From positions 43,909-107,908 of IMG/VR virus record IMGVR_UViG_3300014059_000006: a stretch of DNA of 64,000 nucleotides; one strand, written 5' to 3'. The translations under genes were made by a program, and so were the position numbers. Positions 35,368 to 56,228 of this stretch are shown here, in pieces. The DNA comes from a virus (Duplodnaviria > Caudoviricetes). The notes under the pieces are model-generated. The model was given only the letters and a program-made list of their open reading frames with translations, ran no database searches and was not told the origin of the DNA. Position 1 is the stretch's first letter. The number at the start of each line of letters is the position of its first letter.

Positions 35368-35844
35368 ATGTTAGACTCAAAAATAATCGAACTCCTAAAT
35401 TATAGGATTGAACAAGAACAACTTTCTTCTCGTATTTATGAACAAATGTCAATGTTCTTAGGGAATAAGGGATATGTAAACACTGCGAAACTGTATGCAA
35501 AGTATGCATCAGAAGAATTAAGTCATGCTGAATGGGCTAAAACCTATCTTCTTTCTTATAACATAGAACCAGAACTACATCCCCTTCCTGCACCTACAAC
35601 AGAGTATTCAACATTACAGGAGGTGTTAGATTTAACATTAGAACATGAAATGGATATTACTAAACAATGTAACGAGTTAGCAAGAATTGCACAAGAAATG
35701 GCATACTTCACATGTTTTGATTTAGCTCTTAAATACTGTAGAGAACAAGTGGAAGAAATAGATAAGGCATATACATTGAAAGATATGTATGCACTTTCTA
35801 ATAATGACTTGTTATTTGACCACGCTGTAGAAGACCTTATATAA
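35368..35844 (+). CDS. ftn: Non-heme ferritin
   Basis: 158 aa with the ferroxidase-centre pattern E..SS..Y, EE..HA, EHE..IT and EQ.EE. Confidence 0.88.
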   Translation: MLDSKIIELLNYRIEQEQLSSRIYEQMSMFLGNKGYVNTAKLYAKYASEELSHAEWAKTYLLSYNIEPELHPLPAPTTEYSTLQEVLDLTLEHEMDITKQCNELARIAQEMAYFTCFDLALKYCREQVEEIDKAYTLKDMYALSNNDLLFDHAVEDLI

Positions 35845-41969: not shown

Positions 41970-44900
41970 ATGTCAACAAACTTTAACTCTATACGTAATC
42001 AAATCATTTCTTTATTTGGAAAAGAATGGGGAGCTAATTTAATTACAATTCTTGAAAACTATTGTTCAGACCCTTTTGATGGATGTAGTGGAATTCGCGA
42101 TTGTGAAACATTAACATCAATATCGTTTGAAGATGGGACACTTACGTTCGTCGATGAACATGGTGACGAAACTGTATTAGAAATAACAGGTACTTCAGGA
42201 CTTTCGGGATTTTCAGGAGCAAACGGTTCGTTAGGTGTTTCTGGTATTTCGGGGTTTTCTGGGTTTTCAGGATTCAGTGGAGCATCCGGTACATACGGAA
42301 GGTCGGGATTTTCGGGTGCCTCTGGTACATCGGGATTCTCAGGAACATCTGGTTTAAATGGTTTTGGGACTTCAGGATTTTCAGGAACATCTGGTAAATC
42401 AGGATTTTCCGGAACTTCTGGACTTTCTGGTTTTTCAGGAACAGGAGTTTCTGGGGTTTCTGGATATTCCGGAATTTCAGGAATAAACGGAAGTTCTGGA
42501 GTGAGTGGGTATTCAGGAATTTCAGGATTCTCTGGAACTTCAGGATTTAGTGGAATAGGAATCTCAGGGTATTCGGGTGTGTCTGGAATAGGAACATCAG
42601 GGTTTTCGGGGGTCTCTGGGTTTTCAGGTGTTTCTGGTTTCTCAGGATTTTCAGGATTCAGTGGAGTGTCGGGATTTTCGGGAGTTAGTGGATTTAGTGG
42701 AGAAGGTTCTTCAGGTATATCTGGTATATCAGGATTTTCAGGGACCTCTGGATATTCAGGAAAATCTGGATTTTCAGGTTCTAATGGAGACCGATATGCA
42801 ACTTTTTCAACAACATCAAATTCTCCAGCAAATGGAAGTAAATCTTTTACTGTTGAAACAGGACTGGCTTGGACAGCAGGACAGAGTATAAAAGTAGTGA
42901 GGACATCTGCACCATCTACAGAATATATGATTGGTAACGTTACCTCATATAATAGTGGAACAGGGGCTATGGTTATAAATGTAACTTCTTCAGCTACAGC
43001 AGGAGGAGGTCCTTTTACAGATTGGACTTTAAACCTTGATGGAACTGCGGGGGTAGCGGGTGCTTCTGGAACTTCGGGTTTTTCAGGGTTAGACGGAACT
43101 AGTGGAGTAAGCGGGTTTTCTGGAAAGTCTGGATTTAGTGGGACAAGTGGTTTTTCTGGTACATCGGGATTTTCAGGTACGAGTGGAACTTCAGGGTTCT
43201 CAGGAGTATCCGGATTTTCAGGAATAAGTGGAAAATCAGGATTTTCAGGATTCTCAGGAACGTCTGGGTTTTCAGGTACATCTGGTTTTTCTGGATTCTC
43301 AGGAGTTAGTGGAATAGGTACATCAGGATTTAGCGGGACTTCTGGATTTTCTGGAACGTCTGGATTCAGTGGCACTAGTGGAGCAGTAGGGGCTACAGGT
43401 TTTACAGGAACTTCTGGATTTTCTGGATTTTCAGGAAAAAGTGGATATTCCGGATTAGATGGACAAAGTGGTCATTCAGGAACATCAGGATTTAGTGGTA
43501 TAGGAACATCGGGATTCAGTGGTGTATCTGGATTTAGTGGAATAAGCGGATTCTCAGGGACATCTGGATTCTCTGGGACATCGGGATATAGTGGAACTTC
43601 CGGTTTTTCTGGAGCAAGTGGGACTTCGGGATTTTCAGGGACTTCTGGATTCTCGGGAACTTCTGGATTCTCTGGGACATCGGGAACATCTGGGATAGGT
43701 ACATCGGGATTTTCGGGAACAAGCGGATTCTCCGGAACTTCGGGATATAGTGGTACTTCTGGAATTTCAGGAATTTCTGGATTTTCAGGGGTGAATGGCG
43801 ACTTATATGCTACATCATCATCGTCTTCAAATTCAATAGGTACGGGTTCTAAAAGTTTCACAGTATCTACAGGATTAGCTTGGACTGCGGGACAGAGTAT
43901 TCGTGTAGTAGATACTGCTGCACCAACTACAAATTATTTAATAGGTACGGTTACTTCTTATAATTCTGGGACTGGTGCAATGGTTATAAATGTAACCACT
44001 ACAGGAGGGTCTGGTACATATACATCTTGGAATCTAAACTTAGATGGTACTGTAGGGGTTGCGGGAGCATCAGGTGTTTCCGGTTTTAGTGGAGTGAGTG
44101 GATTTTCAGGAATTTCTGGGTATTCGGGTACATCAGGATTTAGTGGGGTTTCCGGTTTCAGTGGTACATCAGGTTTTTCAGGAACTTCAGGGTTTAGTGG
44201 AACATCTGGTTTTAGTGGTACGTCAGGATACAGTGGATTCTCAGGAACATCTGGGTATAGTGGAACTAATGGTGCAACAGGTAGTTCAGGAACTTCAGGA
44301 TTTTCTGGGGTTTCTGGATTCAGTGGTGTATCAGGATTCTCCGGTACATCTGGGTTTTCGGGAGTTTCAGGATTTAGTGGAATAAGTGGATATTCCGGGG
44401 CTATAGGTATATCAGGTGCGTCTGGTTTTTCAGGTGCAACTGGGGCAGCAGGAACTTCGGGGTTCTCAGGAGTTTCGGGATATAGTGGATTCAGTGGGTT
44501 TAGTGGTGTATCTGGGTTTTCTGGAACAAGTGGATACTCAGGAACAAATGGACTTTCTGGAACTTCAGGGTTCAGTGGTACTAGTGGTTTTAGTGGTACA
44601 TCAGGAGCAACCGGTTTCTCAGGAAGGTCTGGAACTTCTGGTTTTTCAGGTACAAGTGGAACCTCTGGATTTTCAGGAGTTAGTGGTTTTAGTGGTACAT
44701 CAGGGACTAGTGGATTTAGTGGAACAAGTGGATTTTCTGGAACATCTGGGTATTCAGGGACATCCGGGTTTAGTGGATATTCAGGTTTTAGTGGAATATC
44801 TGGATTTTCGGGTGCTAATGGAGATTTATATGCAACATCTTCTTCTACGTCTAACACAATAGGAACAGGGAGTAAATCATTTACCGTAGACCCGGGATTA

Positions 44901-47297
44901 GCATGGACAGCAGGACAATCGATACGAATTGTAGACACTGCGGCACCTTCTACTAATTACATGATAGGTGTTGTTACATCGTATAACCCCGGAACAGGAG
45001 CGATGGTAATAAATGTTACATCGTCTGCTGGTTCAGGAACATTTACCTCATGGGATTTAAATTTAGACGGTACTCCGGGTATAACAGGAGATAGTGGTTT
45101 TTCTGGATATTCCGGTAAGAGTGGATATAGTGGAGTTAGTGGATTCAGTGGAACCTCTGGATTTTCTGGAACTTCAGGAACAAGTGGGTTTAGTGGAACG
45201 TCGGGATTCAGTGGAGTTAGTGGTACTTCCGGTTTCAGTGGTGTAAGCGGATTCTCTGGAACTTCAGGATTTAGTGGAATAGGTACTAGTGGATTTAGTG
45301 GGACTTCTGGGTTCTCTGGAACATCTGGATTCTCCGGAACATCTGGATATAGTGGGGTTTCAGGCTTCTCAGGAACTTCAGGAACTTCGGGATTCTCGGG
45401 ATATTCTGGCGTTAGTGGATTTTCTGGAACAAGTGGTACAAGCGGTTTTCCCGGAACAACAGGAACTTCTGGGTTTTCCGGAGTAAGTGGGTTTAGTGGA
45501 TTAGATGGTACATCTGGATACAGTGGAGTTTCCGGTTTTTCAGGAACATCTGGATTCAGTGGTGTTAGTGGTATAGGAATTAGTGGATTCTCAGGAACTT
45601 CGGGATATTCTGGAACTTCGGGATTTTCTGGTACATCAGGTTTTTCGGGAACTTCTGGTTTCTCAGGAGTTAGTGGATATTCCGGAACTTCTGGCTTTAG
45701 TGGAACTAGTGGAACTAGTGGGATAGGTACAAGTGGATTCTCAGGAACGTCTGGATTTAGTGGAACTTCTGGAACATCCGGAGTAAATGGAGATAGATAT
45801 GCTACATCTTCGGGGTCTACCAATTCTATAGGAACAGGTTCTAAAACATTTATAGTCGCTACTGGTTTGGCTTGGACTGCCGGTCAAACTATAAAAGCAG
45901 TTGATTCTGCAAATCCAACTGTAAATTATTTAATTGGAACTGTTACTTCATATGTTACAGGTACAGGTAATATGGTTATAAATGTTACAAGTACTGGTGG
46001 AAGTGGTTCTTATTCTTCATGGAATTTAAATCTTGATGGTACAGTTGGTGTTGCCGGTGCTTCTGGTGTTAGCGGGTACTCAGGAACGAGTGGGTTCTCG
46101 GGAACGAGTGGATTTAGCGGATTTAGTGGTACAAGTGGATATAGTGGGGTGAGTGGATTTAGCGGAGTAAGTGGTTTTAGTGGAGTGAATGGAGCAAGTG
46201 GTGTAAGTGGATTTTCCGGAGTGAGTGGATTTAGTGGAGCATCAGGAACATCTGGATTTAGTGGTATAGGAACATCGGGATTCAGTGGTGTATCTGGGTT
46301 TAGTGGAACAAGCGGATTCTCTGGAGCATCCGGTTTTAGTGGATTTAGTGGAATTTCAGGATACAGTGGTACGTCAGGATTTAGTGGTACGTCAGGGTTC
46401 TCAGGAACAAGTGGTGTTAACGGAACATCTGGATTCTCAGGATTCTCTGGTGTTTCTGGATATAGTGGGTCTTCGGGTTTTTCGGGTGTGTCTGGATTCA
46501 GTGGAACAAGCGGATTTTCAGGATTTAGTGGAGTAAGTGGATTCTCTGGTGTAAACGGAACTTCAGGATTTTCAGGAACAAGTGGATTTAGTGGTGTTAG
46601 TGGATTTTCAGGTACTTCCGGTTATAGTGGATTTAGTGGATTTAGCGGAACAAGTGGGATAAGTGGATTAAGTGGGGCAGCTCCTTCGATTCCAAAATCT
46701 ACTATTGCCACTGTATTTGAAGATTCACAACGTTTTACTGTAGCTGCTACGGGTACAACTAATTTCTCAACAGGTTTGGGATTATTTATGGACACTAATG
46801 TTTCAATTTCTGAAAATATTGTTACAACTCAAGCCTCAGGTAATAAAAATTGTTATTTAGGTAGCCCTACATTTACAACATCATTGGATTTTTATTCGGG
46901 AACAACCAATACACAAATTTATTTAGGTATGGGAGAAATAGGTGTTACAGGAATAGGTGGACATGTATTTACTGATTCACATATAGGATTTAAGATTGTA
47001 GATAATGCAGGTAGTCATACATTATATGCTACACAAGCAAATGGTACAACTGAAACATCTTCTATTTTAACTACATTGTCAACAGGAGATTTTTTAGATT
47101 TATATTTTGTAATGAATGCTTCATTAAATGTTAAATATTATTATAGAATTAATGGAGGAAATATAAGTTCAGCTACAACTTTGACAACAAATATTCCTTC
47201 TGTTGCAGAAAATAAATGGTTTGTTGCATCGAATAGTAGTGCTAGTGCTACAGGAGCCTCTATTGTTTATATTAATCATGCTTCGTACTCAAGATAA
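41970..47297 (+). CDS. Collagen-like (Gly-X-Ser)n fibre protein with four repeated globular domains
   Basis: Hundreds of G-[FTVIY]-S triplets interrupted by four ~85-aa homologous domains, with a unique beta-rich C-terminal domain. Confidence 0.85.
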   Translation: MSTNFNSIRNQIISLFGKEWGANLITILENYCSDPFDGCSGIRDCETLTSISFEDGTLTFVDEHGDETVLEITGTSGLSGFSGANGSLGVSGISGFSGFSGFSGASGTYGRSGFSGASGTSGFSGTSGLNGFGTSGFSGTSGKSGFSGTSGLSGFSGTGVSGVSGYSGISGINGSSGVSGYSGISGFSGTSGFSGIGISGYSGVSGIGTSGFSGVSGFSGVSGFSGFSGFSGVSGFSGVSGFSGEGSSGISGISGFSGTSGYSGKSGFSGSNGDRYATFSTTSNSPANGSKSFTVETGLAWTAGQSIKVVRTSAPSTEYMIGNVTSYNSGTGAMVINVTSSATAGGGPFTDWTLNLDGTAGVAGASGTSGFSGLDGTSGVSGFSGKSGFSGTSGFSGTSGFSGTSGTSGFSGVSGFSGISGKSGFSGFSGTSGFSGTSGFSGFSGVSGIGTSGFSGTSGFSGTSGFSGTSGAVGATGFTGTSGFSGFSGKSGYSGLDGQSGHSGTSGFSGIGTSGFSGVSGFSGISGFSGTSGFSGTSGYSGTSGFSGASGTSGFSGTSGFSGTSGFSGTSGTSGIGTSGFSGTSGFSGTSGYSGTSGISGISGFSGVNGDLYATSSSSSNSIGTGSKSFTVSTGLAWTAGQSIRVVDTAAPTTNYLIGTVTSYNSGTGAMVINVTTTGGSGTYTSWNLNLDGTVGVAGASGVSGFSGVSGFSGISGYSGTSGFSGVSGFSGTSGFSGTSGFSGTSGFSGTSGYSGFSGTSGYSGTNGATGSSGTSGFSGVSGFSGVSGFSGTSGFSGVSGFSGISGYSGAIGISGASGFSGATGAAGTSGFSGVSGYSGFSGFSGVSGFSGTSGYSGTNGLSGTSGFSGTSGFSGTSGATGFSGRSGTSGFSGTSGTSGFSGVSGFSGTSGTSGFSGTSGFSGTSGYSGTSGFSGYSGFSGISGFSGANGDLYATSSSTSNTIGTGSKSFTVDPGLAWTAGQSIRIVDTAAPSTNYMIGVVTSYNPGTGAMVINVTSSAGSGTFTSWDLNLDGTPGITGDSGFSGYSGKSGYSGVSGFSGTSGFSGTSGTSGFSGTSGFSGVSGTSGFSGVSGFSGTSGFSGIGTSGFSGTSGFSGTSGFSGTSGYSGVSGFSGTSGTSGFSGYSGVSGFSGTSGTSGFPGTTGTSGFSGVSGFSGLDGTSGYSGVSGFSGTSGFSGVSGIGISGFSGTSGYSGTSGFSGTSGFSGTSGFSGVSGYSGTSGFSGTSGTSGIGTSGFSGTSGFSGTSGTSGVNGDRYATSSGSTNSIGTGSKTFIVATGLAWTAGQTIKAVDSANPTVNYLIGTVTSYVTGTGNMVINVTSTGGSGSYSSWNLNLDGTVGVAGASGVSGYSGTSGFSGTSGFSGFSGTSGYSGVSGFSGVSGFSGVNGASGVSGFSGVSGFSGASGTSGFSGIGTSGFSGVSGFSGTSGFSGASGFSGFSGISGYSGTSGFSGTSGFSGTSGVNGTSGFSGFSGVSGYSGSSGFSGVSGFSGTSGFSGFSGVSGFSGVNGTSGFSGTSGFSGVSGFSGTSGYSGFSGFSGTSGISGLSGAAPSIPKSTIATVFEDSQRFTVAATGTTNFSTGLGLFMDTNVSISENIVTTQASGNKNCYLGSPTFTTSLDFYSGTTNTQIYLGMGEIGVTGIGGHVFTDSHIGFKIVDNAGSHTLYATQANGTTETSSILTTLSTGDFLDLYFVMNASLNVKYYYRINGGNISSATTLTTNIPSVAENKWFVASNSSASATGASIVYINHASYSR
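42786..46040 (+). repeat. Four copies of an ~85-aa domain (GD.YATSS...GSKSFTV.TGLAWTAGQSI...YN.GTGAMVINVT...W.LNLDG)
   Basis: Copies at about 42786-43043, 43797-44048, 44820-45071 and 45789-46040. Confidence 0.9.
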
Positions 47298-47328
47298 TTT
47301 GTATTATTAATATTTATTGTTACCTTTG
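47298..47328 (+). promoter_or_regulatory. Bacteroidota -33/-7 promoter
   Basis: TTTG-N19-TACCTTTG directly before the ATG at 47340. Confidence 0.7.
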
Positions 47329-47339
47329 TATTCATAAAT

Positions 47340-48014
47340 ATGAATAGTAATGTACTCCCGTCTTCATATGAATTATACTCTCATACAAAAATATGTGGGA
47401 TATACAAAATAACCTCTCCTTCGGGAAGGATTTATATTGGTAGTTCTAAAAACATTTATAAAAGATGGTATAGGTATGGGCACGAAAGTATAAAAAATCA
47501 AATTAAATTGTCTAACTCCATTCAAAAATACGGTTGGGCATCTCACACTTTTGAAATATTAGAGGAATGTGAAACTAATAAACTTTATTCCCTTGAAAGA
47601 GCTTGGGGAGATTTTTATAGTGTGATTACTACAGGATTGAATTGTCAATTACCCGGTAAAGAATCTATAAAACCCTGTATTTCAGAAGAAACTAGACAAA
47701 AAATAAGAATAAAAGCTACTGGAAGAGTTGTTTCAGAAGAAACAAGAAATAAACTTAGTTTAGCAAAAAAAGGTAAAAAATTATCATTGGAACATGTTGA
47801 AAAAATAAGAAATAATAGTAAAGGTAAAAAAATGTCAGAGGAAGCTCGAGAAAAAATTATCCTAAACTTATCTAAAATTATTTTAGACACTTCTACAGGA
47901 GTTTTTTATAACTCTGTTAAGGAAGCGGCAAATTATTTTAATATAAATTATTCGACTTTGAGGTCAATGTTACAAGGAAAAAATAAAAATAAAACAAACT
48001 TAATATATGCTTAA
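47340..48014 (+). mobile_element. Free-standing GIY-YIG homing endonuclease with NUMOD3-type repeats
   Basis: GIYKITSPSGRIYIGSS..I.KRW..Y plus repeated SEETR.K.S motifs and a C-terminal HTH. Confidence 0.88.
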
Positions 48015-49677
48015 TTATGAAAACATAGGGGGCTGGTTCAGTCCGAAAGATGTGGAAACGTATCGTCGACTTATAGATTATCTACCAGATAATAGTGTTA
48101 TATGTGAACTCGGTTCTTGGAAAGGACGTAGTATATGTTCTGTAGCAGATATTATACTTAAAAAAAATCTTTTTGTAAATATTGTAGACACATTTGAAGG
48201 TACAGAAAATGAAGGAGATGCTCACAAAGAAGCTAAACAAGTAGATTTATGTAAAGAGTTTTTTGAAACAACTGCTAAATTCGGATTAGATAAAGCAAAT
48301 TTAGTAGTTTATAAGTGTACTACTGACGAAGCTTTTGAAAAATTTAAAGAACTAAAACATTTAAAATTTGATTTTATTTTTATAGATGCTGACCATTCTA
48401 CAGAAGCAGTTACTAAAGACATTCAAAATTATTCGCAATTATTAAGAAATGAAAACTCAATACTTGCCGGTCACGACCTTTCGTGGCAATCTGTTCAAAA
48501 AGCTATAGAAAATTGTATTGAAGATATCAATACAATGACTCATAACGGAGAGAATCTATGGTGGTTCGAACCTCAGAAAGTCACATATAAAAAAAATATT
48601 TCTACAAATTTTAATGGTGTAACAGCAGTTGTATGTACAAAAGATAGATATCCACAACTATATAACACTCTTCTTTGTATTCAAAGCCAAAGGATTTCTC
48701 CTAAAGACTTGTTTATTTATGATGATAGTGATAATAAAATAGATATAAAAAACATATACGAATGGCAATCGTTGTGGAATATGTTAGAAACTCGAGGAAT
48801 TAATGTTGTTTATAAACCAACTAATAATCACGGACAAAATAAAAATCATCAAGATTCAGTAATAACTGCAACAACTAAATATATATGGAGAGTGGATGAC
48901 GATTTAATATTTGGACCCAATGTGCTGTATGAATTATTTTCAACAATATCATTGTCTCCTAAAATAGGTGCTGTTGGTCCAAGAGTATCTATGCCAAATA
49001 ACAACACAGTATTTGAACAAGTTTCAGGAAAAATGCAAGACATTTTTACTAAACCAGGAATACAATTAAGCATAAGTGGAGAAGGGCAACACGAAGTAGA
49101 ACATCTTCATTGTACTTTTTTATATGATAGGACATTAGGTGCTTCTTACCATCCTGATTTATCTCAAGTTGGTCATAGAGAAGAAACTATATTTAGTCAT
49201 AATATATTCAAATTGGGATACAAACTCATTGTAGATTTAAATGTAAATGTTTTTCATTTAAAATGTCCTTCCGGTGGAATACGTAGTGAACAAATGACTG
49301 CAGAAATGTTTGTAAGTGATGAACATAAATTCAAAGATTACTTAAACGATGTAACAGTTGTAGAAGAAAATGTTCCTGCCAAACTCCCTTTTTATTATTT
49401 AAATAATGGAATAGGCGACCATTTAGCTTTTAAACAACTTCTTCCTGAATTATTTTTAACTTCAGATAATTTACTTATTGCATGCGTTTATCCTGAAGTA
49501 TTTTGGGATATTCAAAATATACAAATTATTTCATTAGAAGAAGGAAAAAAAATTATAGCAGAACGCGGAGAAACAGAAAAAGATTATTCGGTATACGAAG
49601 TGATGCAAAATTCTGAAAAAGAATTTAGAGGAAACGGTAATTACATATTACAAGCGTATCGTAAATTGTATTTATAA
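48007..49677 (+). CDS. Fusion of class I SAM methyltransferase (Methyltransf_24-like), GT2 glycosyltransferase and a GT9-like N-terminal half
   Basis: Methyltransferase motifs ELGSWKGRS, FIDADH and GHD. GT-A motifs VCTKDR, YDD, RVDDD and REET. C-terminal NGIGDHL...IAC.YPEVF. Confidence 0.8.
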   Translation: MLNYENIGGWFSPKDVETYRRLIDYLPDNSVICELGSWKGRSICSVADIILKKNLFVNIVDTFEGTENEGDAHKEAKQVDLCKEFFETTAKFGLDKANLVVYKCTTDEAFEKFKELKHLKFDFIFIDADHSTEAVTKDIQNYSQLLRNENSILAGHDLSWQSVQKAIENCIEDINTMTHNGENLWWFEPQKVTYKKNISTNFNGVTAVVCTKDRYPQLYNTLLCIQSQRISPKDLFIYDDSDNKIDIKNIYEWQSLWNMLETRGINVVYKPTNNHGQNKNHQDSVITATTKYIWRVDDDLIFGPNVLYELFSTISLSPKIGAVGPRVSMPNNNTVFEQVSGKMQDIFTKPGIQLSISGEGQHEVEHLHCTFLYDRTLGASYHPDLSQVGHREETIFSHNIFKLGYKLIVDLNVNVFHLKCPSGGIRSEQMTAEMFVSDEHKFKDYLNDVTVVEENVPAKLPFYYLNNGIGDHLAFKQLLPELFLTSDNLLIACVYPEVFWDIQNIQIISLEEGKKIIAERGETEKDYSVYEVMQNSEKEFRGNGNYILQAYRKLYL

Positions 49678-50084
49678 TGGAACAATATTATACCCCCGAA
49701 ATAGAAGATTTTAGAGTTGGTTACGAATATGAAAGATTAAACGATAAAACTTGGAATAAGGAAACATTAGAGAGTCACATGCTTTATACACCAAATATTG
49801 GTGAGGCGTGTGACTCAGAAATAACTGAGATTTTACGTGATTTACATGATAATAAAATTAGAGTCCCCTATCTCACAAAAGAACAAATAAAAGCGGAGGG
49901 GTGGGAGTTAAGAACCGAAGGTTATTCAAGAAATTTTTATGAAAAAGGTGAAGAATCACTTTTAGTTCATCATGTTGGACATTGGATTATAATTACAGAC
50001 CTTTCGGAAGAACAAATTTATAAAGGTGATTGCAAATCTATTAATGAATTTAGAACTATAATGAAATTATTAAATATAAAATGA
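49677..50084 (+). CDS. Hypothetical protein
   Basis: 135-aa coupled ORF with no recognised catalytic motif. Confidence 0.6.
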   Translation: MEQYYTPEIEDFRVGYEYERLNDKTWNKETLESHMLYTPNIGEACDSEITEILRDLHDNKIRVPYLTKEQIKAEGWELRTEGYSRNFYEKGEESLLVHHVGHWIIITDLSEEQIYKGDCKSINEFRTIMKLLNIK

Positions 50085-50515
50085 TAGAGTTAGAATATTA
50101 TTGCCCACAATGTGAAGACTTCTTTATAGGGGAATATGATACAAATTATAGATGTAAATGTGGAGCACTTTTATATTTAGATTGTTTTGATGATGAATAT
50201 GCGGGAACACTTGGGTGTTGTAATACAGTTGAAAATTCCTATAAACACAAAATTCAAGAAGTGTTTCCTATGTTACATAGTCATTATATTTCGTATTTAA
50301 AAAAGTATTGTATTACTAAAAGTAAGGAAGACCCTACCTCAGTTGGTTATGGAACTCCTATTTATGGAGGATGTTTTGAAACAGAAAATGAAGTTTGGTC
50401 GGCATGTCACCTACTTTTTACAAAGTACAATCCTTCTAATATAGAAGAATTTGATGAAATTGTTAAAAACATAATATTTTCGGGAATTTCTGGTTACTTC
50501 GGATTACAAAAATAA
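50081..50515 (+). CDS. Hypothetical protein with N-terminal zinc ribbon
   Basis: CPQC...CKCG at the N-terminus; ATGA overlap with the previous gene. Confidence 0.55.
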   Translation: MIELEYYCPQCEDFFIGEYDTNYRCKCGALLYLDCFDDEYAGTLGCCNTVENSYKHKIQEVFPMLHSHYISYLKKYCITKSKEDPTSVGYGTPIYGGCFETENEVWSACHLLFTKYNPSNIEEFDEIVKNIIFSGISGYFGLQK

Positions 50516-50521
50516 AATAAT

Positions 50522-50857
50522 ATGAACATAGAAACTTTTAAAAATGAAATAATAACTTCCCTTAATTTTAAGAATTATGGAGATGTTTTTATACTAGATA
50601 AAAATTTTATACATAGCGATGTTTTATACAGATATCATTTACATATAATATCGGAAAGCCGCGTTTATATAAGTAAGTGTTTACGGGTGAATGTTATACC
50701 TACAGATTCTATAGAATTAAATATACTAAATAATACATTAAAATTGTGTTGCAGTTGTTATAATAGTTCAAAATCTACTAATGTAAACAAAGTATTCTTT
50801 TTAATTGAGGATATTGAAAATACACAAGATATAATTAACTATATAAATATATTATAA
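50522..50857 (+). CDS. Hypothetical protein
   Basis: 111-aa very AT-rich ORF filling the gap between coupled genes. Confidence 0.45.
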   Translation: MNIETFKNEIITSLNFKNYGDVFILDKNFIHSDVLYRYHLHIISESRVYISKCLRVNVIPTDSIELNILNNTLKLCCSCYNSSKSTNVNKVFFLIEDIENTQDIINYINIL

Positions 50858-50858
50858 T

Positions 50859-51557
50859 ATGAAACCTTTAATTAGTATTGTGATTCCTACAGTAAATGAC
50901 TACGAAAAGTTGTTAAAGCCATGTTTGGATTCAATTTTTCTATATACTGAACTTTCAAATATAGAAATTATTGTTGTAAACAATGCAATTCCCAATCATG
51001 AAAAAATTCATTTTACAGCACTTCCTGAAGAAGTTAAAGTTATTTCTTATCCTATACCATTAGGATATCCTAAAGCAGTTAATAAAGGAATAGAAATAGC
51101 ACAAGGAAAGTATATTCTTTTATTAAACAATGATACAGTTCTTCTTCCCCAACCTAAAAATGATTGGTTGAATAAACTTCTTCTTCCTTTTTTTGAAGAT
51201 GAAAAAACAGGAATCACCGGGGTTTTTAAAAAACATATTCCTGAAATTAATAGAAATTTCATATTGTTTTTTTGTGCTTTAATTTCTAAAGAAGTAATAG
51301 AAAAAATAGGACTATTGGATGAATCATTTGGCTTGGGATATTGTGAAGATATGCTCATGTCTCTTAAAGTTGAGGATGCGGGATATAAATTAGTAGCAGT
51401 TCCTGATGATAAAATTGCAGATAATTTTGATGGAAACTTATATGTGTCCAATTTTCAAATATATCATGCTGCACGAGCAACAATGAATAATATTTCAGAC
51501 GAAGCTACAGAAAGTTATAATAAAAATTTTAAAAAATTAATTGAAAAATATGCATAA
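50859..51557 (+). CDS. Family 2 glycosyltransferase
   Basis: ISIVIPT, IIVVNN, GYPKAVNKGI..AQGKYILLLNNDT and GLLDESFG.GYCED. Confidence 0.9.
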   Translation: MKPLISIVIPTVNDYEKLLKPCLDSIFLYTELSNIEIIVVNNAIPNHEKIHFTALPEEVKVISYPIPLGYPKAVNKGIEIAQGKYILLLNNDTVLLPQPKNDWLNKLLLPFFEDEKTGITGVFKKHIPEINRNFILFFCALISKEVIEKIGLLDESFGLGYCEDMLMSLKVEDAGYKLVAVPDDKIADNFDGNLYVSNFQIYHAARATMNNISDEATESYNKNFKKLIEKYA

Positions 51558-52047
51558 TAAAAACATTTTAATATCACCATATTCTAAAAAAATAGAAGGA
51601 AAATTATCCCCAAAAGATTGGGGCAAAGAGAATTGGGAAGCCCTTGTAAAAAAAATAAGAGAACATTCTGATTATAATCTTATTCAAGTGGGTGTAGAAG
51701 GAGAAGAAAAAATTAAAGGCGTAGATTTATGTATTTTTAATATACCCTTTGACAAGTTAAAACGTATAGTACAAAATTCTCGTGTGGTTATATCTGTAGA
51801 TAATTTTATGCCTCATTTTTGTAAAACTGTTAATAAAAAATGTTGTGTTATTTGGGGGCCTTCTGATTCTAATATTTTTGGTTATCCTGAAAATAAAAAT
51901 ATATTAGGAAACACAAAATTAATGCGGAAACAACAATTTTGGCTTTGGAGTCAGATGGAGCAAGATGAAATAAAAAATGGAGTATATAACCCCAACGCTT
52001 TTCCTTCTGTAGATGATGTATTCAAACACATAAAAAATTCCATATAA
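51550..52047 (+). CDS. GT9 (heptosyltransferase-like, GT-B) C-terminal half
   Basis: ILISPYS...KDW....W..L, IQVG, ISVDNFMPH and VIWGP. The ATG at 51550 is preferred over the TTG at 51541. Confidence 0.75.
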   Translation: MHNKNILISPYSKKIEGKLSPKDWGKENWEALVKKIREHSDYNLIQVGVEGEEKIKGVDLCIFNIPFDKLKRIVQNSRVVISVDNFMPHFCKTVNKKCCVIWGPSDSNIFGYPENKNILGNTKLMRKQQFWLWSQMEQDEIKNGVYNPNAFPSVDDVFKHIKNSI

Positions 52048-52144
52048 ATTTGCTTTATTCCTAACTTTACATTATATTAATACTGTAGGAAACTACAGGA
52101 GAATTTTTCTCGTATTATTATAATAGTCCCTAAGCAGGAAGCAA

Positions 52145-52501
52145 ATGGCAGACCAAGTAAAATCTTTTTCTGAGATAGCTCAGAACACTCGAAAAACAGC
52201 GTTGTATTTACAACCTGTTAAACGTATTTCTCCTGAATATGCTACTATAGCAGTGGGAGATAGTCCTTACACAATTCCTACAAATACTCGTTCTATTACA
52301 TTTGTTCTATGGGGAATAGATGACACTAATACAGTATCTATAGCATTTCCTAATACAACAAAATTATTTGATAATATACGATATGATGGATTTGCATTTT
52401 TCTATGCAATAGATATAACAAGAGATTGTGAATTAATAAGCGACGTGGTGGTTACAATTACTGGGGATGCTATTGTGGACTTTATTTATACTACAGATTA
52501 A
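52145..52501 (+). CDS. Hypothetical beta-rich virion protein
   Basis: 118 aa, coupled by TAATG to the fibre gene. Confidence 0.5.
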   Translation: MADQVKSFSEIAQNTRKTALYLQPVKRISPEYATIAVGDSPYTIPTNTRSITFVLWGIDDTNTVSIAFPNTTKLFDNIRYDGFAFFYAIDITRDCELISDVVVTITGDAIVDFIYTTD

Positions 52502-54582
52502 TGCCAACCGGTGCAAGAATTCTTAAAATCGACAGTGCTTCAGATGCACGTTTAACTAATTTAGAAAATAATGTCTACAAAATTACATATTATGAAATTG
52601 TCTCAGGAACAAGCGGAACAATCACGCCTCCTACGGGAGCAACCTTTAATGCAAACGAGTTCGGAGACAGTGGGGACAGTATCCTCTCCAAAATTAACGT
52701 TGACAATAAACCAACGTTTTCGTCACCTACGACAGCAGGTGGTGTCGTGGTTACGGCAAATCTTAACCCTTTAACAGGGGCTTGGACAACTTCAGGAACA
52801 TATACAGATGCTTCTGTAGCCCTTATTTATTCAATAAATATTTCTGCATCAGATTATTCTAATTTAAATAACTTCTATATAATAGAAGAAACTAAATTAG
52901 GATTTGTACTTCCTTCTCTTACTAATGGTTCTGTATTATTTTCAAATGGAACAACCATATCTCAAGATAATGCAAACTTTTTTTGGGATGATACAAATAA
53001 TAGGTTGGGGATTGGAACATCAAGTCCTACCCACAAATTAACCGTTACAGGGAGTTCAGGACTTGAAATGCTAGTGAAAGTATTTAACACTAACGGAGGA
53101 TTTTATTTAGGTTCTTATGGCTCTAATTACGGGGGGGTTTGGTCAAGCAATGTGACACCAAGTTCATCTAATTATGCAATGATTTCTGATGGTGCGGATA
53201 TGGCTATAAATGCTTCCTCGTCAATATCTTTAGCAATAGGTAATAGCACAAAAGCCGCAGTAGTATCTTCATCTTTTATGATAGGAAGTTACTCTAACCC
53301 AGTTGCTAAATTACAAATTGGAGTAGCACCAACGGCATCTGCAAACTATGGACTAGTAAGTCTAGGTAGTGGAGCTTTTGATGGGACAACTAGTGGATAT
53401 TTTTCAGGCAGTGCAAGTGGAACGGTTTTAGCTATAAATGAAGCAACAGGGTTTGTAGGAAATCTTGTAGATTTTCAAGTGGCGGGGGAAAGTAAAATGA
53501 AGTTGGGTATAACTACTACAACTTTACAGTTAGGAAATAGACTTTGGATAAACTATCAAGATGGACAGCCCGCAATATGGGCAAACCCAAATACTAATTT
53601 TACTATAGGTATAGCAGGTTCTTATGCAGGTGGGGGTGCATCCGACCAAATCAGGTTTAATGGTAATCAAATATTACTAAGACCGCTTAATACAGCAAAT
53701 ATTTTATGTTTAACTGATGCTGGTGTTGGTATAGGGCTAGAGAGTACTCTTTCAGCAAAATTACATTTAAGAGGTATAGGAGCTACTAGTGCTACATCTT
53801 CATTATATGTAGATAATAGTTCAAATGAAAGAATTTTACAAATAAAGAATAACAGGACAGTAACTATACAAGGTTCTCCTAATACTTTGGCAAGCGAAGG
53901 GTTTGCTTTAAATGTAGGGGGGGCTATAAGTACAAGTTGGCCTAATGATGGTGCAGATGCATTAGCGATATATGGGTTATCAAACACCTTAAACTTATAT
54001 ATAAATTCAGGAGGTAAAATAGGAACTAATGGTAGGGTTGCTATAGGTACAACAACTTTTAGCTCCACATCATATTTACATATTCCTGTTGCACCGACAG
54101 CCTCTTCAAATTATGGTTTATTTTCTATAGGAGATGGACCTTTTGATGGTTCCACAGCAGGATTCTTTTCAGGAAGTGCAAATGGAACTTTAATAGCAGG
54201 TAATCTCGCAAGTGGAAGTACAAGTGATTTGTTGAATTTGCAAGTTGGTGGGGGGAGTAAGTATAAAATAGATAGCGATGGTAATACAACAATCAAAGGT
54301 TCATTAACTTTAAATTATGTAGCAGTTACTACAACTTATTCAATATTAGCAACAGACTATACAGTAAATGCTACATCAGGTACATTTACAGTAACCCTAC
54401 CAACAGCCGTAGGAATAACAGGAAAGGTTTATAATCTTCACAATTCAGGTTCAGGGATTATAACAATAGCCACTACATCAAGTCAGACAATAGATGGAAA
54501 TGCAAGCGGAGTATTAACACTTGTTCAATATGATAATTTAAAAGTTCAATCAGACGGTGCAAACTGGATAATAATTAGCTAA
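52501..54582 (+). CDS. Tail fibre/spike protein
   Basis: 693 aa, G/S/T/N-rich, with FFWDDTNNRLGIGT and G.VGIG repeats and a C-terminal TVTLPTA...TIDG...SDGANW domain. Confidence 0.75.
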   Translation: MPTGARILKIDSASDARLTNLENNVYKITYYEIVSGTSGTITPPTGATFNANEFGDSGDSILSKINVDNKPTFSSPTTAGGVVVTANLNPLTGAWTTSGTYTDASVALIYSINISASDYSNLNNFYIIEETKLGFVLPSLTNGSVLFSNGTTISQDNANFFWDDTNNRLGIGTSSPTHKLTVTGSSGLEMLVKVFNTNGGFYLGSYGSNYGGVWSSNVTPSSSNYAMISDGADMAINASSSISLAIGNSTKAAVVSSSFMIGSYSNPVAKLQIGVAPTASANYGLVSLGSGAFDGTTSGYFSGSASGTVLAINEATGFVGNLVDFQVAGESKMKLGITTTTLQLGNRLWINYQDGQPAIWANPNTNFTIGIAGSYAGGGASDQIRFNGNQILLRPLNTANILCLTDAGVGIGLESTLSAKLHLRGIGATSATSSLYVDNSSNERILQIKNNRTVTIQGSPNTLASEGFALNVGGAISTSWPNDGADALAIYGLSNTLNLYINSGGKIGTNGRVAIGTTTFSSTSYLHIPVAPTASSNYGLFSIGDGPFDGSTAGFFSGSANGTLIAGNLASGSTSDLLNLQVGGGSKYKIDSDGNTTIKGSLTLNYVAVTTTYSILATDYTVNATSGTFTVTLPTAVGITGKVYNLHNSGSGIITIATTSSQTIDGNASGVLTLVQYDNLKVQSDGANWIIIS

Positions 54583-55034
54583 TGTATATACAACCACATT
54601 TATCGTTATACGATACGACCACGCAAACAATAGTAACAGCTAATACAGAGCAACTTATTACATTTGATACAACTGCAATGGCAAAGAAAATCGTAAAAAC
54701 ATCTTCTAGTAGATTTACATTTAATGAAGGAGGTGCTTATGAAGTTCAAATCACGGCACAAGTAACTTGTTCTGCTGCTAATAAAATACTTGATATTTGG
54801 ACAAAACTAAGTGGAACTAATGCCGATGGAAACAATAAAACTATCGTAGTAAATAACGAAGTTAAAATAATGTCTACAACGTTCTGTTTAGATGGAGTTA
54901 CAGCAGGCCAATATTTAGAAGTTTGGATGTCAGGCGATAATGACACACTTAGATTAATAAGTTATACATCCGATGTAACACCAACACGACCATTAACACC
55001 TTCAATACGTTTAACAATTACAAAATTATCATGA
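54582..55034 (+). CDS. C1q/BclA-C-like jelly-roll protein (fibre tip or trimerisation, putative)
   Basis: ITFDT...FTFNEGGAYEVQITAQ...AGQYLEVW...LTITKL pattern. Confidence 0.55.
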   Translation: MYIQPHLSLYDTTTQTIVTANTEQLITFDTTAMAKKIVKTSSSRFTFNEGGAYEVQITAQVTCSAANKILDIWTKLSGTNADGNNKTIVVNNEVKIMSTTFCLDGVTAGQYLEVWMSGDNDTLRLISYTSDVTPTRPLTPSIRLTITKLS

Positions 55035-55429
55035 AAACAATATTAACATTTTTACTTTTAGTACTCACAATAATATTAGCAATAATATTATTAGTTCCTG
55101 CTTTCATTTACACTGCAATTCGTAGTATTAAACATGGAAGATTGTCTGAATATTTTTATAAGATTGCGTTTAGTTTAGACCAATTAGGAAATGTAGTATG
55201 CCAAGATGTTTTCAACGATTGGTGGATACATCCTAATGGTCATAGAATGGGGAGTTCGGTTGACCAAACTATATCTTTTGTTTTAGGTGTAAATTTAAAA
55301 AATAATACTTTGTATCCATTCGGTGTCAAAGTAGCAAAAGTAATAGATTTTTTTGCTTATTTATTTGGAGATGGTAAAAATCATTGTCTAAGAGCTGCTA
55401 ATAAAAATCAAAATAATAACTTATGGTAA
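55031..55429 (+). CDS. Conserved phage membrane protein
   Basis: N-terminal TM helix, DQLGNV...TIS..LG and a C-terminal HC motif. Confidence 0.65.
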   Translation: MKTILTFLLLVLTIILAIILLVPAFIYTAIRSIKHGRLSEYFYKIAFSLDQLGNVVCQDVFNDWWIHPNGHRMGSSVDQTISFVLGVNLKNNTLYPFGVKVAKVIDFFAYLFGDGKNHCLRAANKNQNNNLW

Positions 55430-56190
55430 TAAAATCAGGTATATATAAACTTATTTCTAAAATAAAGCCTAATATGTTTTATATAGGAAGTGCTGTGAAT
55501 ATTAAAAATAGATTTAGTAGACATAAGGGAGATTTAGAAAAGAATAGACATCGAAACCCAATTTTACAAAATCACGTTAATAAATATGGTATAGAAGATA
55601 TAGAATTTTCAATTATAGAATATGTGCCAGATATACAAAATCTATTAAACAGAGAACAATATTATTTTGATTCTTTATTTCCAACATTTAATGTTTTAAA
55701 ATTAGCTGGTAGTCCATTAGGAACTAGAGCATCTGCAGATACAAAATTAAAAATTTCAGAAAATAATAGTAAGTATTGGTTAAATAAATCACTTTCTGAT
55801 GAACACAAGGAAAATATTTCTAAAGGTAGAGTAGGTATTAAAGCAAATATTCCAGAAGAAAGTAAGAAGAGAAAGTCTGAAAAACTAAAAAACAATAAAC
55901 ATGCCGTAGGTTTTACAAGAACAGAAGAACATAAATTAGCTATTAAAACGGCACATCAAGGAAAGGTAATTTCAGAAGAGACTAGAAAAAAACAATCAGA
56001 ATCTAGAACTGACAAATGCACTATACCAATACTTCAATTTTCATTAACAGGTGAATTTATACAAGAATGGAATAGTTCTGTAAATGCTGCAAAATATTTA
56101 AAATTAAAATCAAATCATATTTCAGAATGTTGTTCTGGAAAATTAAAAACAGCGCACGGTTTTATATGGAAGAAAAAACACACTGTTTAA
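55423..56190 (+). mobile_element. Free-standing GIY-YIG homing endonuclease (NUMOD3 and NUMOD1-type tail)
   Basis: SGIYKL...FYIGSA.NI..R...H, REQYY, SEETRKKQS and ILQFSLTGEFIQEW.S...A.......ISECC.G..KTAHGFIW. Confidence 0.9.
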
Positions 56191-56228
56191 ATGCAGCAAA
56201 AAAATCTCAAATTAATATAACAGAATAA
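56181..56228 (+). pseudogene. Displaced 3' end of the 55031 membrane protein gene
   Basis: Translates to HCLNAAKKSQINITE*, which aligns with the current C-terminus HCLRAANKNQNNNLW* (55382-55429). Confidence 0.7.

Follow-up and report, generated by a model that had tools for sequence, protein, structure and literature searches.

The collagen-like filament proteins BclA (of the Bacillus exosporium) and BclA3 (of Clostridioides difficile, with SgtA) are poor in Pro, carry a hydroxy residue at the Y position of their Gly-X-Y triplets and have transferases encoded nearby, and glycosylation of such bacterial collagen-like proteins is thought to aid their hydration and stability (PMC8968730, PMC7157674). 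A locus of comparable layout is described here from a virus, i.e., positions 41,970 to 52,047 of a 64,000-nucleotide stretch of DNA (hereafter the window) that makes up the final 64 kb of an IMG/VR virus record of 107.9 kb (IMGVR_UViG_3300014059_000006, 88% complete). In this locus, the gene for a long collagen-like fibre is followed by a set of glycosyltransferase and methyltransferase genes, referred to below as the cassette. BclA and BclA3 are bacterial spore proteins with Thr at Y, whereas the fibre of the window has Ser at Y, largely aromatic or aliphatic residues at X, and enzymes that are almost confined to phages. Judging from gene content and distribution, the fibre and the genes that follow it probably form a single virion-glycosylation unit, by which the phage would sugar-coat its own fibre.

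A second close parallel is offered by the TibC–TibA and Aah–AIDA-I pairs (TIGR04414; PDB 4rap, 4rb4), in which a soluble enzyme of heptosyltransferase fold hyperglycosylates a repetitive surface protein encoded next to it, TibC acting on both adhesins, TibA and AIDA-I (PMC4358343). Compared to TibC, the corresponding enzyme of the window is encoded by two separate genes, its N-terminal half is much smaller and its sequence is nearer to WaaC. The sites glycosylated by TibC and Aah are serines. With WaaC and WaaF, members of glycosyltransferase family 9 (GT9), the likeness lies in one of the two halves (GT9C, see below), which aligns with the ADP-heptose-binding domain of WaaC and shares its fold. 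WaaC, however, is one chain with two Rossmann domains and acts on lipid A-Kdo, whereas the two halves in the window are found on two proteins.

That viruses encode enzymes to glycosylate their own structural proteins is already known from mycobacteriophages (PMC12619734) and from chloroviruses and the collagen of mimivirus (PMC9614988), as is glycosylation of bacterial collagen-like proteins (PMC8968730). In mycobacteriophages, phage transferases encoded next to structural genes modify the phage's own virion proteins (Freeman et al. 2023, PMC12619734), but there the glycans are described on the C-termini of capsid and tail-tube subunits and not on a collagen-like fibre. The soluble A064R protein of chlorovirus PBCV-1 joins two glycosyltransferase domains to a methyltransferase, and extends a virion glycan of which it methylates the terminal sugar (PMC9614988); it differs from the cassette in that it belongs to a eukaryotic virus and builds an N-glycan on the capsid protein, and in having neither a GT9-like part nor a collagen substrate. 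Mimivirus L230 likewise serves a virus in glycosylating its own collagen-like protein, but hydroxylates lysine and then glucosylates the hydroxylysine (PMC9614988, PMC8968730), whereas the window offers only six Lys in the collagen part of its fibre and no hydroxylase in the operon. A full-text literature search turned up no publication about glycosylation of phage collagen-like fibres or about this cassette, and the titles and abstracts of the literature mentioning Methylophilaceae phage P19250A, a cultured phage with the same arrangement (see below), included none on fibre glycosylation or the cassette.

A serine-based collagen-like fibre

The fibre gene and the parts of its product are as follows:

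41970..47297, + strand: collagen-like fibre, 1775 amino acids (aa), Pfam Collagen PF01391
aa 1-73 of the fibre: N-terminal domain
aa 74-275, 358-612, 693-953, 1034-1276 and 1357-1571: five (G-X-S)n blocks
aa 1572-1775: non-collagenous C-terminal domain, ~204 aa

The Pfam Collagen model matches the fibre in 13 stretches (E=2.1e-146; 476 bits vs. a cut-off of 27.2), and Gly recurs at every third residue over long uninterrupted runs. When triplets were counted in runs of at least four, 386 Gly-X-Y triplets were found in 17 runs of 4–87 triplets, together making up 65% of the protein. The first-pass annotation of this DNA, made from the sequence alone, had described Ser at nearly every Y position and almost no Pro, and this agrees with the counts: the Y position is Ser in 331 of the 386 triplets, Thr in 8 and Pro in 2. 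The X position is mostly Phe (133), Thr (102), Val (48), Ile (26) or Tyr (26) and never Pro, so that Pro occupies 2 of 772 X and Y positions; the whole protein has 15. Moreover, KGE and KGD triplets are absent from the collagen part, in which only 20 of 1158 residues are charged, just six of them Lys.

Collagen-like proteins are described as relying on Pro or hydroxyproline (Hyp), or on Lys-Gly-Asp/Glu clamps, and Thr-containing triplets as frequent in those of bacteria and viruses (PMC11923368). None of these known stabilisers of the triple helix, i.e., Pro or Hyp at X or Y, Lys-Gly-Asp/Glu clamps, or Thr at Y, characterises the fibre of the window. Since it lacks Pro/Hyp and clamps and has ~40% aromatic or aliphatic residues at X, a glycan would likely be needed for both its solubility and the stability of its helix. 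A precedent of sorts exists in (Gly-Pro-Thr)10, which is reported to be triple-helical only once galactosylated (PMC11923368).

The five blocks are separated by four globular inserts of ~80 aa each, of which inserts 2–4 are 68–83% identical to one another. For the C-terminal domain, Protein Atlas gave likeness to viral hypothetical proteins alone (score of at most 0.94), which is a lead only. As the rise of a collagen triple helix is ~0.29 nm per residue, the summed collagen blocks might extend over roughly 330 nm; this length is an estimate rather than a finding, and the long virion whiskers imagined in the first-pass annotation are conjectural as well. The same genome encodes a second G-X-S collagen-like protein of 349 aa, with Ser at Y in 21 of its 28 triplets. 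Its gene (L004:6808-7857; genome 25808-26857) lies ~60 kb upstream of the fibre gene and far from the cassette, inside a tRNA region between tRNA-Tyr and a PhoH gene.

On the strand opposite the fibre gene, its GGN-NNN-TCN repeat gives rise to antisense open reading frames (ORFs) of up to 438 aa with a high content of Pro, Glu and Asn. Those on the minus strand at 42059-45823 (e.g., 42059-43375) were set aside as by-products of the repeated codons rather than genes.

The cassette enzymes and a split GT9-like transferase

Downstream of the fibre, all genes from 47340 to 52047 lie on the + strand and overlap or abut (gaps of –17 to +6 bases). A methyltransferase fused to a glycosyltransferase of family 2 (GT2), a second GT2 and GT9-like parts had been read from this strand in the first-pass annotation, and all were found where it had placed them:

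48007..49677, + strand: three-part enzyme, 556 aa (Methyltransf_24 + Glycos_transf_2 + Cdom)
aa ~13-190, ~200-440 and 441-556 of that enzyme: methyltransferase domain, GT2a and Cdom, respectively
50859..51557, + strand: GT2b, second GT-A glycosyltransferase, 232 aa (PF00535, 65.1 bits; cut-off 23.3)
51541..52047, + strand: GT9C, 168 aa from a TTG start, C-terminal half of a heptosyltransferase-like GT-B enzyme

The 556-aa protein matches Methyltransf_24 (PF13578) with 46.1 bits (cut-off 26.3) and Glycos_transf_2 (PF00535) with 39.3 bits (cut-off 23.3), and has 162 relatives in a large protein collection. Its AlphaFold model has a predicted local distance difference test (pLDDT) of 91.6. By profile and by fold, the methyltransferase domain appears to be of the sugar O-methyltransferase type: it resembles MeT1 of Mycobacterium hassiacum (6g7d; TMt 0.70, root-mean-square deviation 2.9; profile E=1.9e-6), and its best solved relatives are sugar and small-molecule O-methyltransferases. 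An alignment of 35 sequences showed invariant RxDDD, GHREET and GGIR motifs in GT2a and an invariant GxGDH motif in Cdom (~116 aa). GT2a has both the GT-A fold (matches at E ~1e-10) and the acidic motif expected of it (invariant D297-D298-D299). A fold search with the whole 556-aa model returned B4GALNT1, K4CP, GlfT2, ColGalT1, ppGalNAc-T and TarP, with TMq ~0.3; collagen and mucin transferases are among these matches, but as all are generic GT-A matches, no conclusion on the acceptor was drawn from them. GT2b is present in 51 of 81 viral loci that encode GT2a relatives (see below), and forms one protein with the 556-aa type in P0007 and P0021 (attached at either end) and in L386, the closest relative of the locus. 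No membrane segment was predicted in any cassette enzyme. In an NCBIfam scan, every match of the enzymes fell far below its curated cut-off (e.g., GT9C vs. RfaC, 19.6 bits with a cut-off of 437), so that no named bacterial family applies.

GT9C, the start of which is better fitted in its family by the ATG at 51550 than by the TTG, is a heptosyltransferase-type C-terminal nucleotide-sugar-binding Rossmann domain. A profile of 46 GT9C sequences matches WaaC residues 186-294 (E=1.1e-4), and for the GT9C model (pLDDT 91.6) the best Foldseek matches shown are heptosyltransferases only, i.e., WaaC (TMq 0.65–0.66), TibC (TMq 0.56–0.62), WaaF and a Veillonella GT9. The two Rossmann domains of a GT9 enzyme are, however, not found in one polypeptide here. 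The second GT9-like part of the first-pass annotation could be identified as the last ~116 residues of the 556-aa protein, i.e., Cdom, which is presumed to be the N-terminal half of a split GT9-like enzyme on the basis of its GxGDH motif, natural fusions and a model of the complex. In WaaC, the Asp of an N-terminal Gly-Asp motif has been proposed as the base.

A separate same-strand GT9C ORF was present in 78 of the 81 viral GT2a loci, mostly overlapping the stop codon of GT2a-Cdom or directly adjoining it; the window is exceptional in having small ORFs and GT2b in between. At a threshold of E<=1e-30, the family of GT9C includes 332 clusters; among the best 150 representatives, 112 are stand-alone proteins of at most 200 aa and eight have Cdom directly before GT9C in one chain. 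A predicted complex of Cdom (441-556) with GT9C scored 0.82, as opposed to 0.00 for the best of three controls, and passed a mark reached by 116 of 157 solved complexes and by 2 of 215 mismatched pairs (approximate figures, as our own alignments were used). Over three runs, at least 91% of the contacts agreed, and the pLDDT of the partner was at least 85. The predicted interface joins the invariant G470-D471 of Cdom to the region of the invariant H92 of GT9C, which is where the active-site cleft of a GT-B enzyme would be. The model supports binding without showing it, and its pass may partly reflect likeness to solved GT-B structures, because Cdom and GT9C correspond to the halves of that fold.

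Co-occurrence of the cassette and serine-type collagen

If the enzymes serve the fibre, the two should be found together elsewhere, as the first-pass annotation had proposed to check. Single-protein scans of viral contigs found no relative of the 556-aa protein and only one locus for GT2b (L006), so that alignments were needed to reach further. A viral-contig search with the conserved peptide HREET[ILM]F[TS] then yielded at least 597 GT2a relatives, of which the best 80 loci were kept; with L006 and two contigs from metagenome-assembled genomes (MAGs), this gave 83 loci (81 viral, two MAG). Collagen ORFs were defined by at least 12 triplets, and were called Ser-Y when Ser occupied at least 60% of the Y positions.

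A collagen ORF was found in 32 of the 83 loci and a Ser-Y collagen ORF in 28. The enzymes' strand was shared by 35 of 41 collagen ORFs, and the Ser-Y ORFs lay at distances of –37 to 8726 bases. After deduplication, 31 of 37 collagen ORFs beside GT2a were Ser-Y, and 29 of 37 combined Ser at Y with aromatic residues at X. In a control scan of viral contigs with a collagen pattern blind to composition, the corresponding numbers for the 152 distinct collagen ORFs among the matches listed were 20 and 9 (Fisher p=2.4e-16 for Ser-Y and 3.3e-19 for Ser-Y with aromatic X). Counted by GT2a cluster (70% identity), 15 of 30 clusters had a Ser-Y neighbour; of the 18 loci in which at least 5 kb was available to either side, nine had a Ser-Y ORF; and of 39 non-overlapping metagenome loci, 18 had a collagen ORF, which was Ser-Y in all 18.

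In the reverse direction, three aromatic Ser-Y contigs from the generic collagen scan carried no cassette, and since this control sample was too small, a targeted scan for G-[F/Y]-[S/T] repeats was run. After merging of overlaps, it gave 55 groups of at least 3 kb among the matches listed, and 24 of 37 Ser-Y groups had GT2a in the locus, as opposed to none of the 17 Thr-Y groups and not the one remaining group either (p=1.5e-6). With the groups restricted to those of at least 8 kb among these matches, the counts became 13 of 25 vs. 0 of 16 (p=3.7e-4). The Thr-Y fibres serve as an internal control here, because aromatic X is common to both types. Such Thr-Y aromatic-X collagen ORFs are common in giant-virus bins (L237, L255, L258, L267, L291) and occur in some phages. 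The proposed check was, therefore, positive in both directions.

A complete 166-kb phage with G-T-S fibres (G004; L157/L385) has no GT2a. It does encode a TibC/Aah-family domain (TIGR04414; 321.9 bits, cut-off 200) inside a 777-aa ORF that is placed between its two G-T-S fibre genes. The presence of two different transferase systems beside serine-type phage collagen strengthens the functional reading.

Distribution among phages

The pairing recurs in unrelated phages, i.e., crAss-like phages, SU10-like podophages (with SU10 adaptor or capsid matches in L064, L069, L086 and L223) and a cultured siphophage. The closest relative, L386, whose enzyme is 49% identical to that of the window, has a G-X-S ORF, a single 819-aa ORF fusing methyltransferase, GT2a, Cdom and GT2b, then GT9C, a 123-aa ORF and another G-X-S ORF. 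On 114–130 kb contigs (L017, L007), the cassette is accompanied by a G-X-S fibre of up to 2361 aa. Sugar-nucleotide genes lie upstream of the cassette in L017 (DegT, acetyltransferase, epimerase) and RmlA/B/D-like genes beside it in L021; since such genes differ from phage to phage, the composition of the glycan probably does as well.

The single GT2a match in 50,697 phage records was phage P19250A (KX815270), in which GT2a and GT9C come after a 209-aa ORF that is itself preceded by a 1201-aa (G-[Y/F/W]-S)n fibre (GenBank protein APC43908.1). The fibre is annotated as 'tail length tape-measure protein' and the three genes behind it as 'hypothetical'. As this phage and its host strain IMCC19250 are a cultured pair carrying the whole arrangement, the question is directly testable. 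The two fibre-type genes of this phage are:

L224:4594-8199 and L224:1249-4026: P19250A fibre-type genes (GenBank KX815270)

The neighbour of the G-X-S fibre, annotated as 'PE family protein', is itself a fibre-type protein rich in Gly, Thr and Ser.

In cellular genomes GT2a is nearly absent: among 185,579 bacterial and archaeal species genomes (one per species), only two relatives were found, each on a MAG contig. The contig L223 includes an SU10 capsid gene, and its cassette is flanked by two Ser-Y collagen ORFs. This rarity makes it unlikely that GT2a is a borrowed envelope-synthesis gene or a prophage conversion gene.

Two further observations concern the neighbours of GT2a and collagen genes in other phages. 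Directly upstream of GT2a-GT9C, some large phages encode mega-transferases of 1957–2383 aa with up to eight glycosyl- or methyltransferase domains (GT2, GT17, Methyltransf_24, FkbM):

L007:4101-9971, L021:71-6547, L050:3212-9283 and L051:3884-11032: mega-transferases

In addition, two 2OG-Fe(II) oxygenase genes (L064:9237-11572 and 11560-12474) stand just ahead of a second, non-serine collagen ORF in L064, and could act as prolyl or lysyl hydroxylase for that collagen, which has Ala, Gly or Pro at Y.

A proposed pathway and the alternatives

From this anatomy we infer a pathway as follows. The cassette, consisting of the soluble, phage-specific two-chain GT9-like GT-B enzyme (Cdom + GT9C), GT2a, GT2b and the sugar-O-methyltransferase-like domain, would act in the host cytoplasm and O-glycosylate the Y-position serines of Gly-X-Ser repeats, both of the 1775-aa fibre and probably of the 349-aa G-X-S protein. 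The heptosyltransferase-like split enzyme might start the chain on Ser, as TibC does on adhesin repeats, GT2a and GT2b might extend it, and the methyltransferase might cap it, in the way that the third domain of chlorovirus A064R is described to do for a capsid glycan (PMC9614988). Up to 331 sites per chain would come to bear a short glycan, probably with a methyl cap, and this glycan would define the surface of the particle. Stability, adhesion or shielding, which the first-pass annotation had assigned to such a methyl-capped coat, would be its putative roles.

The idea that the transferases belong to the Ser-rich fibre is favoured by co-occurrence, by specificity for Ser rather than Thr, by the range of phage lineages, by the solubility of the enzymes and their near-confinement to phages, and by the place of the operon among fibre genes. 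Weighing against it are the cassettes without collagen. No collagen ORF was in reach in 51 of the 83 loci, including nine of the 18 with at least 5 kb on both sides, and in T4-like myophage contigs (L012 and relatives) the cassette lies among prohead protease, major head, portal, adaptor and sheath-stabiliser genes; either the cassette is not tied to collagen alone, or its substrate is encoded far away. Conversely, GT2a was absent from the fetched locus in 13 of the 37 Ser-Y groups among the matches listed, and from all five G-X-S records that were searched whole (the three aromatic-X ones being 6–30% complete). The samples are also non-random (the best 80 of at least 597 loci, and pattern-scan figures that refer to the matches listed), the thresholds that define collagen and Ser-Y ORFs are our own, and the p-values overstate independence because the loci are interrelated.

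The same caution applies to the enzymology. GT9C reaches 20.3 bits with Pfam Glyco_transf_9 (PF01075), below the 22-bit cut-off; Cdom compared by sequence with solved structures gave chance-level matches (E 0.58 and 1.4) and no heptosyltransferase N domain; the GT-A fold matches of GT2a are generic and silent on the acceptor; and TIGR04414 (TibC/Aah) has no match at E<=0.01 in the window's genome. Finally, the excerpts of PMC11923368 that treat glycosylation-stabilised triple helices describe them for Thr only, not for Ser. That glycans may stabilise a Ser triple helix is a reasonable conjecture. We know of no comparable helix-stabilisation experiment for Ser.

The collagen-less loci partly bear out what the first-pass annotation had named as grounds for abandoning its proposal, i.e., transferases that occur independently of the fibre. 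They would be explained if the cassette were a general virion-glycosylation module with capsid, neck or tail proteins as its main targets and the G-X-S fibre as at most one substrate, and both the head-gene setting in T4-like contigs and the glycosylation of capsid and tail tube by mycobacteriophage enzymes (Freeman et al. 2023, cited in PMC12619734) would suit such a module. It is nonetheless unlikely. Such a module leaves no reason for collagen neighbours to be mostly Ser-Y (31 of 37 vs. 20 of 152 among the matches listed) or for the cassette to accompany 24 of 37 Ser-Y groups vs. 0 of 18 Thr-Y or other groups among them. Moreover, fibre genes in genomes of T4-like size can lie far beyond a 10-kb flank, and when five collagen-less viral records were searched whole, two held a G-[F/Y]-S ORF elsewhere: a 370-kb jumbo record (L021) has a 734-aa ORF with Ser at Y in 44 of 49 triplets some kb beyond the fetched locus, and in a 124-kb record one lies at the other end of the contig. 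The remaining three are 13–26% complete.

That fibre and transferase genes might merely gather in a plastic host-recognition island, so that their linkage says nothing of function, seems very unlikely to us. Hypervariable islands of aquatic phages are indeed described to hold tail fibres, collagen-like proteins and glycosyltransferases together (PMC7029224, PMC10202952), and homing endonucleases and small ORFs have inserted in the window's own operon (see below). An island effect, however, explains neither the difference between Ser and Thr (24 of 37 vs. 0 of 17 among the matches listed), nor the same-strand, abutting gene order in crAss-like, SU10-like and siphophage genomes, nor the other serine-glycosylating family between the G-T-S fibres.

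Environmental-phage glycosyltransferases are routinely read as protecting DNA or modifying the host surface (PMC10202952, PMC7029224), and linkage, specificity, solubility, confinement to phages and the fibre-gene setting argue against both for this cassette. Modification of lipopolysaccharide (LPS), capsule or another host glycan, e.g., to block superinfection, is the interpretation given to pelagimyophage and actinophage transferases (PMC7029224, PMC10202952), and the nearest sequence relative of GT9C is the LPS heptosyltransferase WaaC. Even so, we rate it as less probable still than a mere island effect: the enzymes lack membrane segments, their family is all but missing from bacterial genomes (two MAG contigs among 185,579 species genomes), unlike a host-derived envelope or prophage conversion gene, the NCBIfam matches are far below their cut-offs, and the specificity for Ser-Y fibres would go unexplained. 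Least probable of all, to the point of being hardly credible, is that the enzymes glycosylate or methylate the phage DNA against restriction. DNA glycosylation is a known role of phage transferases (PMC12619734) and PHROGs labels the methyltransferase part 'DNA methyltransferase' (phrog_2675, E=2.7e-11), but the domain is closest to sugar and small-molecule O-methyltransferases, a hydroxymethylase of the thymidylate-synthase type is missing from the genome (88% complete), and the cassette belongs to the late structural block rather than to the replication genes; the link to one fibre type would also be left unexplained.

Glycosylation of the phage's own fibre is thus the reading that we prefer, and a more far-reaching version of it can be put forward tentatively, as a possibility that we would not bet on: a phage-only cassette, built around an obligately two-chain heptosyltransferase-like enzyme, would make a densely O-glycosylated Gly-[aromatic/aliphatic]-Ser collagen, a third, glyco-serine route to a stable helix, and the trait would have arisen at least twice (the second time with a TibC-like enzyme, for Gly-Ser/Thr-Ser fibres). 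The fibres would then be hundreds of nm long and carry about a thousand sugar chains per trimer, the composition of which would help to set host range and environmental behaviour. If fibre glycosylation is correct, a large class of 'auxiliary' genes would need re-annotation (at least 597 viral contigs; the 332 GT9C clusters), and aquatic and wastewater phages would commonly have virion glycosylation, which has so far been documented in giant viruses and mycobacteriophages. It would also mean that a natural Pro-free, charge-free, Ser-based triple helix exists whose stability may depend on sugars, and that the split heptosyltransferase-like enzyme is a compact candidate for Ser O-glycosylation of designed repeat proteins.

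Inserted genes and genomic surroundings

The remaining genes of the operon and those directly downstream are:

47340..48014, + strand: GIY-YIG/NUMOD homing endonuclease (GIY-YIG 31.2 bits, NUMOD3 32.4 bits, phrog_314 E=2.9e-34)
49677..50857, + strand: three small ORFs of 135, 144 and 111 aa, without a family match
52145..55034, + strand: three genes beyond the cassette, probably for fibre or tail proteins of 118, 693 and 150 aa

The homing endonuclease gene stands between the fibre gene and the enzymes and overlaps the first enzyme gene by eight bases. The closest relative, L386, has no gene at this position, and the homing endonuclease is a passenger, outside the glycosylation system. The three small ORFs, of which the 144-aa one is Cys-rich with a zinc-ribbon-like start, had no relative in 81 GT2a loci and no family match in library scans, and separate parts that L386 holds fused. 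Given the layout of L386, the endonuclease and the small ORFs are later insertions into a compact unit.

Among the downstream genes, the 150-aa protein shows homology to the L080 G-X-S fibre (residues 365-508; E=1.3e-11) and also matches an L064 ORF (E=3.3e-8), and the 693-aa protein resembles viral fibre-type clusters alone in Protein Atlas (score of at most 0.94, a lead only). Transferase genes embedded among structural genes, as in the virion-glycosylation systems of mycobacteriophages, are found in the window and in other phages. A terminator-like hairpin lies at 52083-52098, just 3′ of GT9C, but is weak evidence, since the window has 10 such sites vs. 5.9 +/- 2.7 expected; a promoter scan of the window gave 64 sites vs. 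65.2 +/- 9.6 expected.

Gene content identifies the source record as a crAss-like phage: the part upstream of the window has a match to the major capsid protein of Crassvirus, and the window itself encodes CrAss tail ring proteins 1 and 2, a muzzle-type virion protein of 1575 aa, giant cargo-type ORFs of 2921 and 2792 aa and, further down, an M15 endolysin. A megablast search of 47300-56200 against the 50,697 phage records gave zero matches. G+C content is ~30% across the window and 43–44% over the fibre gene alone, where the GGN and TCN codons account for the peak.

Between the giant cargo-type proteins lies a gene for a ferritin-like protein (35368-35844; PF00210, E=1.5e-16). Homing endonucleases are abundant in the genome (at least four GIY-YIG, two HNH and one LAGLIDADG):

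window 47340-48014 and 55423-56190: homing endonuclease genes
L003:7960-8637 and L003:10859-11680: homing endonuclease genes
L004:2143-2730, L004:4563-5315 and L004:6184-6681: homing endonuclease genes

The genome also carries an array of 15 tRNAs (L004:2128-8770), which includes Phe(GAA), Thr(UGU), Ser(GCU) and Tyr(GUA), i.e., tRNAs for residues that are abundant in the fibre. An amber-reading tRNA (anticodon CUA) is part of the same array, and the ORFs of the window are still open under the standard code.

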